A model generated the notes under the pieces. That model did not search any database and was not told the origin of the DNA. It saw nothing but the letters and a program-made list of their open reading frames with translations. 64,000 nucleotides of DNA, taken from contig OY843751.1 of assembly GCA_963693055.1 (NCBI GenBank), positions 768,001-832,000 of the forward strand, in the 5' to 3' direction. This document shows, one piece after another, positions 15,738 to 22,128 of this stretch. This stretch comes from a bacterium. GTDB taxonomy: Bacteria; Zhuqueibacterota; Zhuqueibacteria; Residuimicrobiales; Krinioviventaceae. The position numbers and the translations under genes are program-made. Within the stretch, counting starts at the first letter, position 1, and each line of letters begins with the position of its first letter.

Positions 15738-18238
15738 CCTTTGCTCATGGCTTCCTGAATTGCAGTGAGCAGACCTGACTGGTCAAAGGGCTTTCTTACC
15801 AGCCGGTAACCTTCTTCGGGAAGGTGACCGGTATCTAACATGTCATGACTGTAGCCACTGGCAAAGACAATGGGGAGGTGGGGGTGATTTATTCGAATAT
15901 GATCATGCACCATGCGTCCGCTTTTTTTCGGCATAACAACATCCAAAAGGACAAGATCTATAGCCTTTACATGTTTTTCAAATTTCTCAATTGCGTTTTC
16001 GCCGTCAATAGCAGTAATAATATTGTATCCTGCTTGTTCTAAAATGAGTTCGGCGAGTTCACGTACCTGCTCGTCATCTTCTGCTAATAGTATTGTTTCA
16101 CCGGTACCTTTTAATTCTTTGTATTGTTTTTGTTTTTCTGCTTCAATGGTACTGGTTTGATCTGAATTGGCCGGCAGATAGATTTTAAAAACAGTACCCA
16201 TACCTTCTTCGCTATAAAGATTAATAAATCCACCATGTCGTTTGGTTATTGCATACACGGTTGACAAGCCCAGCCCGGTACCTTCGCCAACCGCTTTGGT
16301 AGTAAAAAAGGGCTCAAAAATACGGTCTTTAATTTCTTTGGGAATGCCTTTACCGGTATCGCTCACATTTATTGCTACATAGTTCCCTTCCTGTGCTTCC
16401 GCATGGATTTGACAGTATTCTTTTGAAAGCAGAATGTTTTCAGTCTCTATAGTAAGCTTGCCTCCATCGGGCATTGCGTCTCTGGCATTTACACAAAGAT
16501 TGAGTATAATTTGCTCTACCTGTCCGGGATCAGCTTGTAATATTTGTAGATCAGCACCGGGATGAAAACTCAGATCTATATGTTCACCAATAATCCTGCG
16601 AATCATTTTTAACAGCCCGCTGGTAAGATCGTTCAGGTCGATTTGTTTCAACTGCAAGGTTTCACGTCTGCTAAAGGCTAGTAATTGGCGCACGAGTGCT
16701 GTTGCCCGTTCTGATGCTTTGGCTACATGGTCAAGGGTTTTTCTGGCAGGGTTATCTTCTCCCAAGATATCCTGGGTCATCTCTGTGTATCCGGCAATGA
16801 CCTGAAGCATATTGTTAAAATCATGCGCTACACCTCCGGCAAGTTGACCAATGGCTTCCATCTTTTGGGACTGGCGGATTTGCCCCTCTAGTTCCAATTC
16901 ACGAGTAATATCATGATTTACGCTGACAAAGTTGGTAATATTTCCATCTTCATCGCGAATTGGAGATATCTCTACCTCTTCTGTGTACAGTGTTCCGTCC
17001 TTTTTCTTGTTTATGACCTGAGATTTCCAGATTTTACCGGATAAAATTGTCTTCCATAATGCCTTGTAATATTCAGGATCATGTTCGCCACTTTTTAATA
17101 TTCTTGGGTTTTCGCCAATTGCCTCTTTGCGACTGTATCCGCTCAACCTTTCAAAAGCCGGATTTACATACTGCATGGTACCTTCAATATCCGTAATAAT
17201 TACAACTTCTGATGCTTGCTCAATCGCTCTGGCAAGACGAGTGTTCTCTTCAAGGGCTTTTTTCTGTGCTGATATGTCAACCAAGATTCCATCAACATAG
17301 TTCATTGTTGGGCCTTTAACCAGTGTAGCCCAGATTTTGCAATAAAGGGGAGTACCATCTTTTTTCTTTAATGCCAGGTCAAAATTGTCAACTTTGCTGT
17401 TCTCGAGTAATAATTTGTTAAATTCTTTAAACTTGAACGCGTCCAGATAAAAATTTGATAAAGGGTTTTTTGAAAATTCTTCAAAGGAACTAAAGCCAAA
17501 CATTTTAAAAGCAGCAGGATTAGCAAGTATCATTTTCCCATTTTCCTGATAGTGTCTACGATAAATGCCAACAGGAAGCTGGTTCAATAATGTGCGGTAT
17601 TTGTTTTCGCTTTCGATTAATGCCTTTTCTGAATTTTTTGTTTCTGTTATATCCCTTATAACACTGTGAATCTGATCAAGTTCTCCTAAATTGTTAGTGC
17701 TGGGTCTGCTTTCCAGTTCAATTATTAGAATATTACTATTATTGCTACGAATTTCCAGTTCTGTTGTAATATTATCAATATTGTTTTTCAGATTTTGGAT
17801 ATGTTGCTCAAGCAGTTTAATGGATCTTGAAGTGAGAAGGTCTGAAAAATGTCGTCCGATAACATCGTAACGGGTATATTCAAAACTATCAAGCCATGTT
17901 TGATTTATATCAATCAGCACTCCCGTGGAATCCATGCTTTGATAGGCAATAGGTGCTTTTTCAAAAAGATCCTGAAATCTTAATTCGCTGTATACAAGTT
18001 TTTGAGCATAGATATTAAGGCGTTTAAGCAATAACCCGGTAATTAATCCAATGATACCACCAACTGTTATTGGTATTAAATACCATTTGGGTTCTATGGG
18101 GATACTAAAAATTGTTCGTTGTATTGTGGCAACTGTTGCAAGTGTTGTCGAACCTATTAAAAAGGAAAATATACCCCGTTTTATCCAGGGGAGTAGTGGA
18201 TGTGATGATTTCGGGCTTTTGAGTGCATGTTGGTTCAT
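15731..18238 (-). CDS. Hybrid histidine kinase: 2 TM, 3 PAS, HisKA, HATPase, receiver
   Basis: QSQKMEAIGQLAGGVAHDFNN, NLCVNARDAM, FEPFFTTK, C-terminal ILLAEDD receiver; start 18238 after AAGGAG. Confidence 0.93.
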   Translation of the reverse strand: MNQHALKSPKSSHPLLPWIKRGIFSFLIGSTTLATVATIQRTIFSIPIEPKWYLIPITVGGIIGLITGLLLKRLNIYAQKLVYSELRFQDLFEKAPIAYQSMDSTGVLIDINQTWLDSFEYTRYDVIGRHFSDLLTSRSIKLLEQHIQNLKNNIDNITTELEIRSNNSNILIIELESRPSTNNLGELDQIHSVIRDITETKNSEKALIESENKYRTLLNQLPVGIYRRHYQENGKMILANPAAFKMFGFSSFEEFSKNPLSNFYLDAFKFKEFNKLLLENSKVDNFDLALKKKDGTPLYCKIWATLVKGPTMNYVDGILVDISAQKKALEENTRLARAIEQASEVVIITDIEGTMQYVNPAFERLSGYSRKEAIGENPRILKSGEHDPEYYKALWKTILSGKIWKSQVINKKKDGTLYTEEVEISPIRDEDGNITNFVSVNHDITRELELEGQIRQSQKMEAIGQLAGGVAHDFNNMLQVIAGYTEMTQDILGEDNPARKTLDHVAKASERATALVRQLLAFSRRETLQLKQIDLNDLTSGLLKMIRRIIGEHIDLSFHPGADLQILQADPGQVEQIILNLCVNARDAMPDGGKLTIETENILLSKEYCQIHAEAQEGNYVAINVSDTGKGIPKEIKDRIFEPFFTTKAVGEGTGLGLSTVYAITKRHGGFINLYSEEGMGTVFKIYLPANSDQTSTIEAEKQKQYKELKGTGETILLAEDDEQVRELAELILEQAGYNIITAIDGENAIEKFEKHVKAIDLVLLDVVMPKKSGRMVHDHIRINHPHLPIVFASGYSHDMLDTGHLPEEGYRLVRKPFDQSGLLTAIQEAMSKGK

Positions 18239-18424
18239 TGACTGTCTCCTTTTACAATAGAAATCTATTATGTCCATTTGGAGGCCAATAAATTATATAT
18301 AAGCAATTCCTAATATTGCAGGTAAGGACAAACCCTGATATTTTTTCCCATGGCCTTGTTATGTAATTATATGATTTTCTTTGATTGTGTGCAAGTTAAA
18401 TATTTGTTTTTTATAAAATATGCA

Positions 18425-18455
18425 ACCATGTCCGGCAATGAGAACCGAACATGGT
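18425..18455 (-). terminator. Hairpin ending the 103-aa gene
   Basis: Minus strand ACCATGTTCGG/CCGGACATGGT, 11 bp with one U-G pair, right after the stop; weak U-tract. Confidence 0.6.
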
Positions 18456-18462
18456 TTGCAAT

Positions 18463-18774
18463 TCAGGACGAAAATGCCTGATGTGCATCAATGCAACCGA
18501 GTTCAACTGCTTCCTGTAAAATATCAACATGTCCCAATCGTTTAAAATAGAGGGACGCATAATTGCGTTGTACCAGGCTGCCTTGAAATAAATAGTAGCG
18601 AATTCTTGCACGGCCTTCCTGCGAGTCAACCAGTCCCAGCGCGTAATCAAGAATTTTATAGCTGCCAATACCTTTGGCGTCGTTCAGATACTGCATCAAA
18701 ATGTCAATATTTTCTGCAGTGCCTGCTTTTGCTATTTGGCTGAGTTTGTCCATGGTTAACAGGTGGGTCGTCAT
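18463..18774 (-). CDS. Uncharacterised 103-aa helical protein downstream of tandem attenuators
   Basis: Strong RBS AAAGGGAGGT before ATG; protein-like composition; own 3' hairpin. Confidence 0.8.
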   Translation of the reverse strand: MTTHLLTMDKLSQIAKAGTAENIDILMQYLNDAKGIGSYKILDYALGLVDSQEGRARIRYYLFQGSLVQRNYASLYFKRLGHVDILQEAVELGCIDAHQAFSS

Positions 18775-18808
18775 TTTACCACCTCCCTTTCTTGAGTTAG
18801 TTTATATC

Positions 18809-18845
18809 AAAAAAAAAGCCCCGTTCTTTGCGTGAACGGGGCTTT
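18809..18845 (-). terminator. Attenuator terminator T2
   Basis: Minus strand GCCCCGTTC-7nt-GAACGGGGC followed by 9 T. Confidence 0.92.
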
Positions 18846-18867
18846 AATGAAAAGATAAAAGTGCCTT

Positions 18868-19032
18868 TTATGGCCCCGTTTTATTTAAAATATCGTCAGT
18901 GCAATCACAATCATCATTCATGGTATCTACAGCATCAAATACATTCGAGCAAACCGCGCGAGTTCCAATGCAGATGGATTTGTACATGTTGTCTATGATG
19001 TTTATGAAAATAGTTGATTTGTTGAATTGCAT
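18868..19032 (-). CDS. Leader peptide 2 (54 aa, Asp-rich): MQFNKSTIFINIIDNMYKSICIGTRAVCSNVFDAVDTMNDDCDCTDDILNKTGP
   Basis: Translated by hand; RBS AAGGA 6 nt before ATG; last codons contain AACGGGGC, complementary to the T2 5' arm. Confidence 0.75.
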   Translation of the reverse strand: MQFNKSTIFINIIDNMYKSICIGTRAVCSNVFDAVDTMNDDCDCTDDILNKTGP

Positions 19033-19054
19033 GATTTTTCCTTGTATATAAATG

Positions 19055-19090
19055 AAAAAAGCCCCGCTCCTGATTGGGAACGAGGCTTTT
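19055..19090 (-). terminator. Attenuator terminator T1
   Basis: Minus strand GCCTCGTTCC-6nt-GGAGCGGGGC then TTTTTT; two G-U pairs form only on the minus strand, fixing the orientation. Confidence 0.9.
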
Positions 19091-19111
19091 AAAAATTTAT
19101 TTGTAAATTTT

Positions 19112-19225
19112 TTATTGCCTCAATCCCAGCGGTGCATTATCATCAATATCAAAATCAACAACATCAAAGCAGACTGGTGCCCATGCATTGATAATAATGT
19201 TGAGATATGTTGTTGTTGTTTTCAT
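19112..19225 (-). CDS. Leader peptide 1 (37 aa, Thr/Ile then Asp-rich): MKTTTTYLNIIINAWAPVCFDVVDFDIDDNAPLGLRQ
   Basis: Translated by hand; last codons contain TGGGATTGAGGC, complementary to the T1 5' arm GCCTCGTTCCCA; AAGGA lies 15 nt upstream (long spacing). Confidence 0.72.
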   Translation of the reverse strand: MKTTTTYLNIIINAWAPVCFDVVDFDIDDNAPLGLRQ

Positions 19226-19265
19226 ATTGATTGTTTTATTTCCTTAAAAATTTTAATGAGCAATA

Positions 19266-19293
19266 AATATAGCAAATTTTTAGATTAATGCAA
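19266..19293 (-). promoter_or_regulatory. Sigma70-type promoter of the leader module
   Basis: TTGCAT-N16-TATATT with TGn extended -10 on the minus strand. Confidence 0.6.
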
Positions 19294-19305
19294 CATTTTT
19301 TTGTA

Positions 19306-22128
19306 TTATTTTAATAAAACCATCCTCTGAATAGATGTGTATGGATCTGCTTTTAGTTTTAACCAATAAATACCGGAACTGACGGGTAAATTTGATTGAT
19401 TGGTCCCGTTCCAGAAAAGTTGATGACTTCCCAAAGACATATTCCTGTTAATTAATTCTTTAACAACTCTGCCATAAACATCATAAATTGTTAGTTTTAC
19501 TTTTGCAGGTTTTGGCAGGTCAAAGCGGATGCTGGTTCCTGCATTAAATGGATTGGGGAAATTGGGATAGAGTTGAAATTCAATCGGCAGTTTTTCATTG
19601 TTATCATCAATTCCTGTGCCTTTTTGAATAGAGAAATTAAAGGCTTGCTCGCATTCAGTTAAATGATCGTCCAGGTCAATTGCGGTAACGCTCCACTGGT
19701 AGCTGTCACCTGCTAAAAGATTTGTGTTGATCTGAAAGGAATTGCCTACAACATATTGGTCAATAATTATCGTTTCAATTCCTGTCATTTGTTTTACAAC
19801 AAGATGATAAGTAATGTTATCACCGAGATCATTATCGTCCGCCTTTTCCCATCTTAATTCCGGAGTTAATGTGGAAAGTGTACTTTGGTCTTCCGGAGTC
19901 ATGAGCCGAAATCCATCAGGGGCCTTATTGTCAATAAACATTGCACCCAGATCCCAATTGCCGAATGTCTGGCGGTCGCGACCATAATAATCTGTTAAGA
20001 ACCAGTCAAGTGCCGGTCCATTTTGGCGGGCAGGAGAAAGTGTCAGCAGGTAAACATCTGATACCATGTTGGGCATATTGTTACCATACACAAGTAAAGG
20101 ATCACCATCGAGTGAACCTAAAGTATTAATGGTGTTATTTTTATTTCTCCAGTATTCCTGGAACAGTTCTATGGTTGAGAAATTTCGTTCATAGGTAGGC
20201 AGTTCTTCATCGCGGTAATGAATAATTGCATTATTAACCGATAATGGGCCCGTACCATATAAATTATGGTGCATAATATGCGAGTGTCCGGCAACATCTG
20301 CAATGCTGAGCTGGAATTCGGCATTGTTGTAAATAATATTGCCAATAATCGTTTCAGCTTCAATCTGCCGTGACCCGGATATTGTGGTTACTAAAGCCAG
20401 TCCTGCTTTGTAACCTGCATGCTCGCTTATTCCATTTGCCACAATGGTATTGTAAAGAACTTGGCAATATTTACTGGCAGTTATAGCGATACCTGCTCCT
20501 TCATTTCCGAAACAGATATTATTATAAATCCAGGTGCTGTCTGCGCCCTGATCTGCAATAATGCCATTGCCGTCGCTCCACCAGTCGGCACCCACAGTGC
20601 CGGCAGTACCCTGGTTATTATTGCTGCTAACATTACGTTTGACAATATTTCCTATACTTGTTCCATGAATGTTAATTCCGCTGCAACCGCCATGCATCCA
20701 GCCATTGTTCCAGACCGAGTTATGTTCAACAATATTGTGTGAGCCATTGACACTGATACCCCATGCGCCATTGTTCAGGCTTTGATTATGAGAAACACTG
20801 CCATTATTTGAATTGGATAACGATAATCCCGAGGCACCGCAATCCTGGACCACATTGTTTTCAATAACAATACCGGAAAGGGGAGAATCTTCCGAATATA
20901 CATAAATACCATGACCGGCCCGACCACCGTCTTTGGGATATTTGATCCATGAACTGTCGTATTCGGTTTTATCGATAGTAGCGGGGTAGCTGATTTTACT
21001 GATAGTATTTTCATTAATTGTTATATCGTTTGTGTTTTGAACATGTATTGCAGAAAAACTGTTCACAATTTCAAAGCCCGAGTTATCGGGATCTCCGGAG
21101 ATATTATTCAAGATGATCTGGTTTCCTGGACCGGCATTGGTAACCGCAATATGTGAAGAATGTTGTTCCACAGGAGAGCCATTCTCCCAAAATGTGCATG
21201 ACTGAACAAGATTATCTGTCGAATTACTGCCAATAATGGAAAGGGCAGATTCTCCCATATTGTTGGAAAAGTTGCATATGTTGACTCTTGTTGTATTTGC
21301 ATGACTTAGCAGGCAGCAAATCCCTGAATTGTTGTTAAAGCGATTGTCAAAAACACTATTTTCAATGGGGATAGAGTTTGACTCTTTGAACTCATCCGGC
21401 TCTATTCCAATAGATAATGCAATGCCTGAAAGATTGGAAAATTCATTATAGGAGATATCGGTAAATGAGGTGTGGGAACACCATACACCGCGCTCGGTTA
21501 TGGTATCTGATTGTGTAAATGTATTTTTCAGAATGCGGTTATAATCTCCCGCAGAATCAAGGTATATATGTGCATCCCATACTCTTTCTACATTTCCTGT
21601 ATTGGTAAAGGTACATTCAGAGATTTCATTGTATGATGATGTATTAAAAACATGGATTGCGGCAGAACCCTGGTTATTTGTAAATGAACAATTGCTGATT
21701 TTATTGTAATGTGAATTGTCGAGCAAGATGGGTTTACGATTTTTCAAACAGTTTGCGAATATAAAATTTTGAATATGTATAAATGAGGCGTCTGTCAAAT
21801 CAAGTGCATACGTACCGTCCCATGAATCAGCTGTCAGCGTTGGGATTTCGTTTTCGTAAGCCATGATCACAATGGGATTCAGAGCGGTACCAGATGCATT
21901 AACCTCTATTTTTTCAGAATAGGTACCGTAACGAACAAAAAGTGTATCACCCTGAACAAGGTAGGGTACTGCATGAGATATTGTTTTGAACGGACCGTGA
22001 TTATCGGTTACAATCGGTGCAAGGCCATCAAATGCATCGTTACCGCCGCTTTGAGCGACATACCAGGTTTCGGAATAGAGTGTGGCTGTTGAGAATAGTA
22101 GTATAATGAGCAAGAATCGTTTAATCAT
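19306..22128 (-). CDS. Secreted right-handed beta-helix (pectin lyase-like) protein with FN3-like and T9SS/FlgD-Ig C-terminal domain
   Basis: Signal peptide MIKRFLL, WYVA..G.D..DG...PFKTI, Asn-ladder repeats, YPNFPNPFN...GIYWLKL C-terminus. Confidence 0.85.
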   Translation of the reverse strand: MIKRFLLIILLFSTATLYSETWYVAQSGGNDAFDGLAPIVTDNHGPFKTISHAVPYLVQGDTLFVRYGTYSEKIEVNASGTALNPIVIMAYENEIPTLTADSWDGTYALDLTDASFIHIQNFIFANCLKNRKPILLDNSHYNKISNCSFTNNQGSAAIHVFNTSSYNEISECTFTNTGNVERVWDAHIYLDSAGDYNRILKNTFTQSDTITERGVWCSHTSFTDISYNEFSNLSGIALSIGIEPDEFKESNSIPIENSVFDNRFNNNSGICCLLSHANTTRVNICNFSNNMGESALSIIGSNSTDNLVQSCTFWENGSPVEQHSSHIAVTNAGPGNQIILNNISGDPDNSGFEIVNSFSAIHVQNTNDITINENTISKISYPATIDKTEYDSSWIKYPKDGGRAGHGIYVYSEDSPLSGIVIENNVVQDCGASGLSLSNSNNGSVSHNQSLNNGAWGISVNGSHNIVEHNSVWNNGWMHGGCSGINIHGTSIGNIVKRNVSSNNNQGTAGTVGADWWSDGNGIIADQGADSTWIYNNICFGNEGAGIAITASKYCQVLYNTIVANGISEHAGYKAGLALVTTISGSRQIEAETIIGNIIYNNAEFQLSIADVAGHSHIMHHNLYGTGPLSVNNAIIHYRDEELPTYERNFSTIELFQEYWRNKNNTINTLGSLDGDPLLVYGNNMPNMVSDVYLLTLSPARQNGPALDWFLTDYYGRDRQTFGNWDLGAMFIDNKAPDGFRLMTPEDQSTLSTLTPELRWEKADDNDLGDNITYHLVVKQMTGIETIIIDQYVVGNSFQINTNLLAGDSYQWSVTAIDLDDHLTECEQAFNFSIQKGTGIDDNNEKLPIEFQLYPNFPNPFNAGTSIRFDLPKPAKVKLTIYDVYGRVVKELINRNMSLGSHQLFWNGTNQSNLPVSSGIYWLKLKADPYTSIQRMVLLK

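Follow-up and report, generated by a model that had tools for sequence, protein, structure and literature searches.

Attenuators of the trpL, hisL and thrL type have a leader ORF whose end lies a short way 5' of a terminator, and an antiterminator that competes with this terminator. The locus described here, on the minus strand of the window (the whole 64,000-nucleotide stretch of bacterial DNA analysed), resembles them in having a leader ORF just before a terminator and a competing antiterminator, but differs in having neither a conserved run of control codons nor a cognate biosynthetic gene.

A closer parallel is the whiB7/wblC uORF, whose efficient translation leads to formation of an intrinsic terminator, while stalled or failed translation leads to an antiterminator (10.1101/2023.06.02.543512). 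The same terminator/antiterminator logic, the lack of a codon run and a non-biosynthetic target are common to both. In the parts of that paper cited here, however, whiB7/wblC is a single, actinobacterial unit with a known transcription factor as its target, and its induction was shown, whereas at the present locus induction is inferred. Leaders of bmrCD, vmlR, tlrB and ytbDE of B. subtilis are described as a leader ORF, an anti-antiterminator, an antiterminator and a terminator (PMC13689557). A protector stem comparable to this anti-antiterminator is predicted in many GC-rich members of the family reported below. In contrast, the B. subtilis systems, as presented in the cited sections, have single leaders with known resistance genes downstream, and the units in the window have no protector over the antiterminator strand.

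Tandem attenuation is known from Salmonella mgtCBR, where the mgtM and mgtP attenuators precede a non-biosynthetic operon, an arrangement its authors called a singular example (PMC3641672). As here, two short ORFs, each within its own attenuator, occupy one leader. According to the cited text, the mgtCBR units are unlike each other, respond to different signals (ATP and proline) and act additively, whereas those in the window are duplicate-like, with an equal spacing of 25 nt. An initial reading of this DNA from sequence alone (the sequence-only reading) had set the locus apart from textbook attenuators as single; two in series are indeed found here, although mgtCBR had already provided a published tandem. 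In E. coli, ribosomes stall at different places on the toiL uORF, which thereby responds to antibiotics of several classes (PMC12121999), and a DUF1127 uORF is also antibiotic-responsive (PMC12218461). Unlike the units in the window, toiL, in the account cited, acts on translation initiation and Rho-dependent termination rather than through an intrinsic terminator.

Ribosome-type and tandem attenuation are thus already known; what appears to be new is a conserved attenuator family before an unnamed HEAT-like gene. A literature search returned nothing on the gene or the leader family, a search by name being impossible for an unnamed gene, and supplements of Term-seq or small-ORF surveys could list it. 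Leader-peptide attenuators matter here as pointers to the purpose of that gene.

Layout and folding of the two units

The putative promoter consists of TTGCAT (19293-19288), a 16-nt spacer and TATATT (19271-19266), preceded by TG as in an extended -10 element (TG-n-TATATT). It fell below the threshold of the consensus promoter scan because TTGCAT matches at only three of six positions; a promoter-like pair can be read at the equivalent place in the sequences of four other genomes (G001, G005, G014 and G022). Leader ORF 1 (19225-19112, 37 codons) is intact in G001, and the purine tract 5' of it is separated from the ATG by 15 nt, a distance poorly suited to a Shine-Dalgarno sequence. Within its Asp-rich codons 21-29 (19165-19139), Asp stands 7 and 9 codons before antiterminator strand 1 (19128-19117), which is predicted from complementarity and folding to pair with the 5' arm of intrinsic terminator T1 (19090-19055; stem 19090-19057 followed by a U tract; -21.4 kcal/mol).

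Leader ORF 2 (19032-18868, 54 codons) has AAGGA 7 nt upstream. Its Asp-rich codons 33-47 (18936-18892) include GAT-TGT (Asp-Cys) and place Asp 8 and 10 codons before antiterminator strand 2 (18880-18873), the predicted partner of the 5' arm of intrinsic terminator T2 (18845-18809; stem 18845-18815, nine-U tract to 18809; -20.6 kcal/mol). The 103-aa gene follows (18774-18463, with GGAGG at 18786-18782); profile and predicted structure make its product all-helical and HEAT/PBS-lyase-like. The distance from stop codon to terminator stem is 25 nt in both units and the arms of T1 and T2 are near-identical, so that the two units look like duplicates. Promoter, leaders, terminators, gene and both complementary segments had been described in the sequence-only reading and were all present as given there. 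An independent promoter in the 35 nt between T2 and the gene, the doubt which that reading had raised, was not listed by the promoter scan. A 13-pair hairpin 3' of the gene (18456-18366, minus strand), together with a promoter-like site matching at 10 of 12 positions upstream of the PAS histidine kinase gene (18277-15731), suggests that the 103-aa gene is transcribed alone.

Complementarity between ORF end and terminator is exceptional in this 6.5-Mb genome. A scan of 1303 terminator-like hairpins yielded 518 pairs with a short ORF ending just upstream, and the duplexes of the two units with their terminator 5' arms (-20.6 kcal/mol for unit 1 and -15.7 kcal/mol for unit 2) ranked first and second among them. 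For neither unit did any of 200 shuffles do as well. The positive control of the scan was a classical trp-type attenuator outside the window, with a Trp-rich 23-codon leader ORF, an antiterminator and a terminator (G000:C1:4335485, plus strand). No paralogous units were found in the genome by tblastn, blastn or an architecture scan, and the 34 weak Rfam matches to 18200-19400 all stayed below the gathering scores of their families. The same genome has a tRNA-Sec gene (G000:C1:2437525-2437620).

Folding of each unit, as the sequence-only reading had proposed, gave different balances of terminator and antiterminator. In naked unit 1, with no ribosome, the antiterminator form (-22.3 kcal/mol) is predicted to be slightly favoured over T1 (-21.4), and with it read-through. 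In unit 2, T2 (-20.6) outcompetes its antiterminator (-14.3) at equilibrium (P(T2) = 1.00); read-through there would therefore need kinetic trapping, with the antiterminator forming first.

Leader 1 also has a long predicted hairpin (19231-19143, minus strand; -25.0 kcal/mol) formed by base-pairing between its start region and its Asp-rich codons. Its stability was matched by none of 300 base shuffles and by 10 of 500 synonymous recodings, and no substitution in G001 falls within the predicted stem. A similar fold in leader 2 was not beyond chance (54 of 300 shuffles and 188 of 500 recodings were as stable). The hairpin leaves antiterminator strand 1 uncovered, hence the slight preference of naked unit 1 for read-through. 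The sequence-only reading, which saw no strong 1:2 protector, had overlooked this hairpin, which may serve in polymerase pausing or in shutting off re-initiation. While unit 1 has no protector over the antiterminator strand, one is predicted in many GC-rich members.

In the window, the freed 3' arm of T1 is predicted to capture the 5' arm of T2 (0.91-1.00), and this cross-pairing could couple the two units. Folding predicts no such capture in G005 or G014, nor in G001, where the value is 0.08 or less.

Conservation of the leaders and terminators

The gene was found at 85 loci. After removal of 15 PadR operons, 7 fused genes, 5 loci with short upstream DNA and 3 duplicate records of a place already counted, 55 were assessable, and a leader ORF with a terminator was present at 45 of these, the window included. 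The conserved arrangement for which the sequence-only reading had proposed to look is therefore present. At three of the remaining ten loci there is a terminator and the leader is cut by the contig end; the other seven have no terminator. Across the 47 distinct units, the stop codon and the stem are always 21-36 nt apart.

From one lineage to another, the antiterminator and its terminator arm vary in concert, as in AACGGGGC/GCCCCGTT, AATGAGGC/GCCTCGTT, TCTCTATGG/CCGTAGAGA, GGTTGCGC/GCGCAGCC and GCCGCGC/GCGCGGC. One alignment comprises 35 GC-rich units, probably from Chloroflexota, and 84.9% of its cells for the antiterminator helix can pair, compared with 25-50% for slid controls; counts in these leaders are not independent events because the sequences are related, and the helix has only two double changes in the alignment. 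From the same alignment, RNAalifold recovered the terminator alone and no shared protector. Tested unit by unit, 26 of 47 beat their shuffles (10 or fewer of 200 as good), including all AT-rich units. Of the conserved Asp-rich ORFs and covarying pairs for which the sequence-only reading had proposed to test homologous loci, the covariation was borne out; Asp-richness was not, most leaders having one or two Asp.

Tandem units occur at five of the 45 loci: the window, its relatives G001, G005 and G014, and metagenome locus L014. Further contigs added no variant except one like that of G001. G005 and G014 are two genomes of another genus, with the tandem units beside rho. L014 has a very different sequence, with leaders of 37 (GTG start) and 57 codons and spacings of 25 and 26 nt. 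Single and doubled versions of one switch thus coexist, which makes the benefit of a second attenuator, such as a tighter off state or a steeper response, testable. At L008 the counted terminator is followed, ahead of the gene, by a second terminator-like hairpin, which may be the remnant of another unit; an ORF runs through it and the locus was not counted as tandem.

Several features point to translation of the leaders. Leader 2 differs between G001 and the window by indels of -3 and +9 nt, which keep the frame. In the GC-rich group the ATG follows closely behind a -10-like box, and these leaders are likely leaderless. A conserved GAT column follows their ATG at a distance of 24, 27, 30 or 33 nt, in frame in every one of the 35 leaders, and in 34 of them the frame holds as far as the antiterminator; the part behind is read in two frames (26 versus 9). 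A frame kept up to the Asp codon, with two frames in the 3' part, points to translation, and in these sequences constraint seems to act on coding in the 5' half and on the RNA itself in the 3' half.

The features of an attenuator are accordingly found together: a short ORF before an intrinsic terminator, a shared strand with covariation, and a leader with signs of selection for translation. An explanation with no switch would have T1 end the transcript of the upstream 957-aa gene, the ORFs be chance or small functional peptides, and T2 only dampen expression. It gains from the poor Shine-Dalgarno spacing of leader 1 and from the terminator scan, which found no terminator between the 957-aa gene and the promoter-like site. 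However, the identical layout stands behind different upstream genes (rho in G005 and G014, others elsewhere), and antiterminator covariation and frame conservation also argue against this explanation, which we consider highly improbable. Sequence comparison instead indicates that the ribosome-type attenuator family is real and conserved, and doubled at this locus.

Covariance model R1, run over 75 sources, found copies only before the HEAT-like gene or its operon. The terminator pattern matched in 18 of the 167 genomes of the phylum; the 17 matches away from the gene that were inspected were ordinary terminators without a leader switch, so no regulon was found among these matches. A pattern match in a viral contig lay inside a coding region and was dismissed as chance. 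Leaderless short ORFs with Asp pairs stand some 90-270 nt 5' of the gene at L055 and L065, where an intrinsic terminator is missing. At L055 the stop codon is followed by a C-rich tract, and this may be a Rho-dependent form of the switch.

Proposed mechanism and candidate signals

A ribosome at the leader stop codon would cover the antiterminator strand, allowing the terminator to form. One held anywhere upstream, as far as about five codons before the strand, would leave the antiterminator free to capture the 5' arm of the terminator, before the 3' arm is synthesized. RNA polymerase would then get through to the HEAT-like gene only if translation of both leaders falls behind, and the two units in series could well form an AND gate. 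Doubling would multiply two read-through probabilities and so give a tighter off state. The conserved Asp, often in Ser-Asp-Cys/Ser, would be the preferred stall site, and the protein may serve a drug or stress response.

The mechanism was modelled by moving a ribosome footprint codon by codon under equilibrium folding. In 46 of 46 units antiterminator pairing reached 0.6 or more over a stretch of mid-leader positions and fell below 0.1 once the ribosome stood at the stop, where the footprint masks the antiterminator by construction. The value of 0.00 for unit 2 with no ribosome came from the 3' arm of T1 inside the folded piece. Within the model, stalling over a broad stretch of leader permitted antitermination in all 46 units, as in attenuators of the whiB7/bmrB/vmlR type. 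Geometry, conservation, frame-keeping indels and the footprint model all fit the proposal of the sequence-only reading that two ribosome-dependent attenuators in series precede a non-biosynthetic gene. On our analysis it is on balance probable, by a modest measure, that the two leader/antiterminator/terminator units are ribosome-controlled attenuators opened by translation stress, for example by ribosome-targeting antibiotics.

The signal had been sought in part in the richness of the leaders in Asp, and this side of the earlier proposal is weakened. Asp makes up 2-16% of codons across leaders, those of G005 and G014 have 2 Asp in 41-48 codons and most have one or two. Enrichment in the window is modest (P about 0.08 for leader 1, with 5 of 37 codons, and 0.02 for leader 2, with 8 of 54; genome Asp, 6.2%), and there is no conserved run of any codon across the leaders compared. 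What recurs is a single Asp 7-10 codons before the antiterminator strand, found in 39 of 47 units and often as Ser-Asp-Cys/Ser; those not counted are, among others, the second units of G005, G014 and L014, besides two rows for which the script put the strand elsewhere.

This spacing is the main argument for a sensor of Asp-codon decoding, responding to Asp-tRNA supply or to slow reading of GAU, for instance by unmodified tRNA-Asp, with the clusters in the window as an amplified single GAT. At lineage level it holds for 8 of 10 units (our own grouping; nominal P 2e-4, with the spacing window chosen after the fact). Asp in the GC-rich leaders is encoded by GAT in 31 of 35 and never by GAC, with the third base mostly predicted to be unpaired (mean 0.29), and Asp pairs recur in the terminator-less leaders of L055 and L065. 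Decoding of Asp nevertheless seems an unlikely signal: most leaders have one or two Asp codons and no runs, unit 2 of G005/G014 and of L014 lacks Asp at that spacing, RNA pairing with the start region explains the Asp codons of leader 1, and neither the gene nor its neighbours, by the domains and neighbours examined, has a tie to Asp, Asn or tRNA metabolism.

The acidic clusters of both leaders could also act through the nascent chain, destabilising the ribosome (IRD) in the manner of MgtL, so that the leaders would report Mg2+ or a similar condition. Since naked unit 1 favours read-through (-22.3 versus -21.4 kcal/mol), ribosome drop-off would open T1. However, the risk of IRD, in the portion of the work cited, is maximal at N-termini and becomes cryptic once the chain spans the tunnel (10.1101/2021.02.02.429294). 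The clusters in the window lie at codons 21-29 and 33-47 with no acidic run near the N-terminus, acidic stretches being 20-47 codons in, and most homologous leaders are not acidic. The MgtL-like option, which the sequence-only reading had included, is weakened by these positions and has very little probability.

The peptide may carry the signal in another way. Ligand-dependent arrest peptides are exemplified by TnaC and SpeFL, and the GC-rich leaders have a peptide-level pattern: behind hydrophobic residues comes Ser in 26 of the 35 leaders, written with AGY as well as with TCT codons, then Asp in 31 and Cys/Ser in 34 of them. A hydrophobic stretch with Ser-Asp-Cys could thus form an arrest peptide for a metabolite or xenobiotic bound or handled by the downstream protein. 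Ser-Asp-Cys is found again in L006 and L046 on unrelated RNA backgrounds, and the downstream domain is fused elsewhere to ligand-sensing regulators and hydrolases. On the other hand, the leader peptides of the window and of G005/G014 have little sequence in common with those of the GC-rich group, the predicted protector stem takes in part of the motif, and no ligand candidate emerged. We regard this reading, too, as rather improbable. The GAT-centred motif is in any case a candidate for a new arrest context.

Translation stress, the third input suggested in the sequence-only reading, is the preferred signal and agrees with Ser before Asp in 26 of 35 GC-rich leaders, which fits the context of chloramphenicol arrest, given in the section cited as Ala, Ser or Thr in the penultimate position (10.1101/2021.06.17.448903). 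Leader 1 of the window has no Ser/Ala/Thr-Asp pair. A drug arrest at the level of the peptide leaves the use of GAT without GAC in 31 of 35 unexplained.

The HEAT-like protein and its gene context

The 103-aa protein belongs to no Pfam, NCBIfam or PADLOC family. Two profile searches collected 382 and 336 relatives, with 111 representatives at 50% clustering and source labels including KSB1, Ardenticatenaceae, Bacteroidales, Prolixibacteraceae, Spirochaetales and Nostoc. The gene is patchy, occurring in 6 of 167 genomes of the phylum, and no match to plasmids was found by protein or DNA.

The AlphaFold model has seven helices (pLDDT 89.5), the family profile matches alphaRep/HEAT-like chains (best E 3e-12, on a repeated target) and the Atlas neighbours of the protein are HEAT_2 clusters. 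In these three respects it is like HEAT_2/PBS-lyase repeats and alphaRep. Unlike HEAT_2/PBS-lyase repeats, the query itself matches no Pfam family (HEAT_2 matches 2 of 122 family members, best E 0.009), and Foldseek against the PDB gave no match at E 0.001. By its modelled structure the product is a HEAT-like helical-repeat protein of an unnamed family.

Among 44 longer matches scanned, the domain stands behind TIR, kinase, caspase, KAP NTPase, alpha/beta hydrolase, GNAT, MarR and TetR domains, and the C-terminal family motif closes 32 of the 44. Together with PadR operons and MFS and ABC genes, the TetR, MarR, GNAT and hydrolase fusions offer hints of a xenobiotic response. The TIR, kinase, caspase and KAP NTPase fusions speak against a drug-stress reading and point to signalling or conflict roles; in proteins P0121-P0215 the domain is C-terminal on such proteins, like an adaptor or sensor module of conflict systems.

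The PadR operon setting was found at 15 loci. A second clade of the gene lies behind a PadR regulator (L015, L017, L019, L050, L054, L058, L059, L063, L073 and others); the promoter of this regulator has a palindromic operator-like box, which L064 and L066 retain without an intact PadR gene. At L009 (the same place as G014) a tetracycline-efflux-like MFS gene lies 80 nt downstream of the HEAT-like gene, and L013 has a DrrA-like ABC gene as neighbour; all such resistance-like matches are below curated cut-offs, differ between loci and are possibly unrelated. Identification of partner hydrolases as macrolide esterases is unsupported, as scores were far below the cut-offs.

If stalling ribosomes do induce the gene, this unnamed family, which comes from bacteria of sediments and digesters, could be put forward as a candidate factor in translation stress or drug response. 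A bolder version, which we advance tentatively and think somewhat doubtful, is that an undescribed, widespread attenuator family senses a specific translation insult by stalling at Ser-Asp-Cys/GAT and induces small HEAT-like resistance or ribosome-rescue proteins, the unit having been duplicated into a two-ribosome coincidence gate in several lineages.

At one further locus (L078, 1347-1497) the same GC-rich leader lies upstream of an alpha/beta hydrolase gene, which is followed by the HEAT-like gene.
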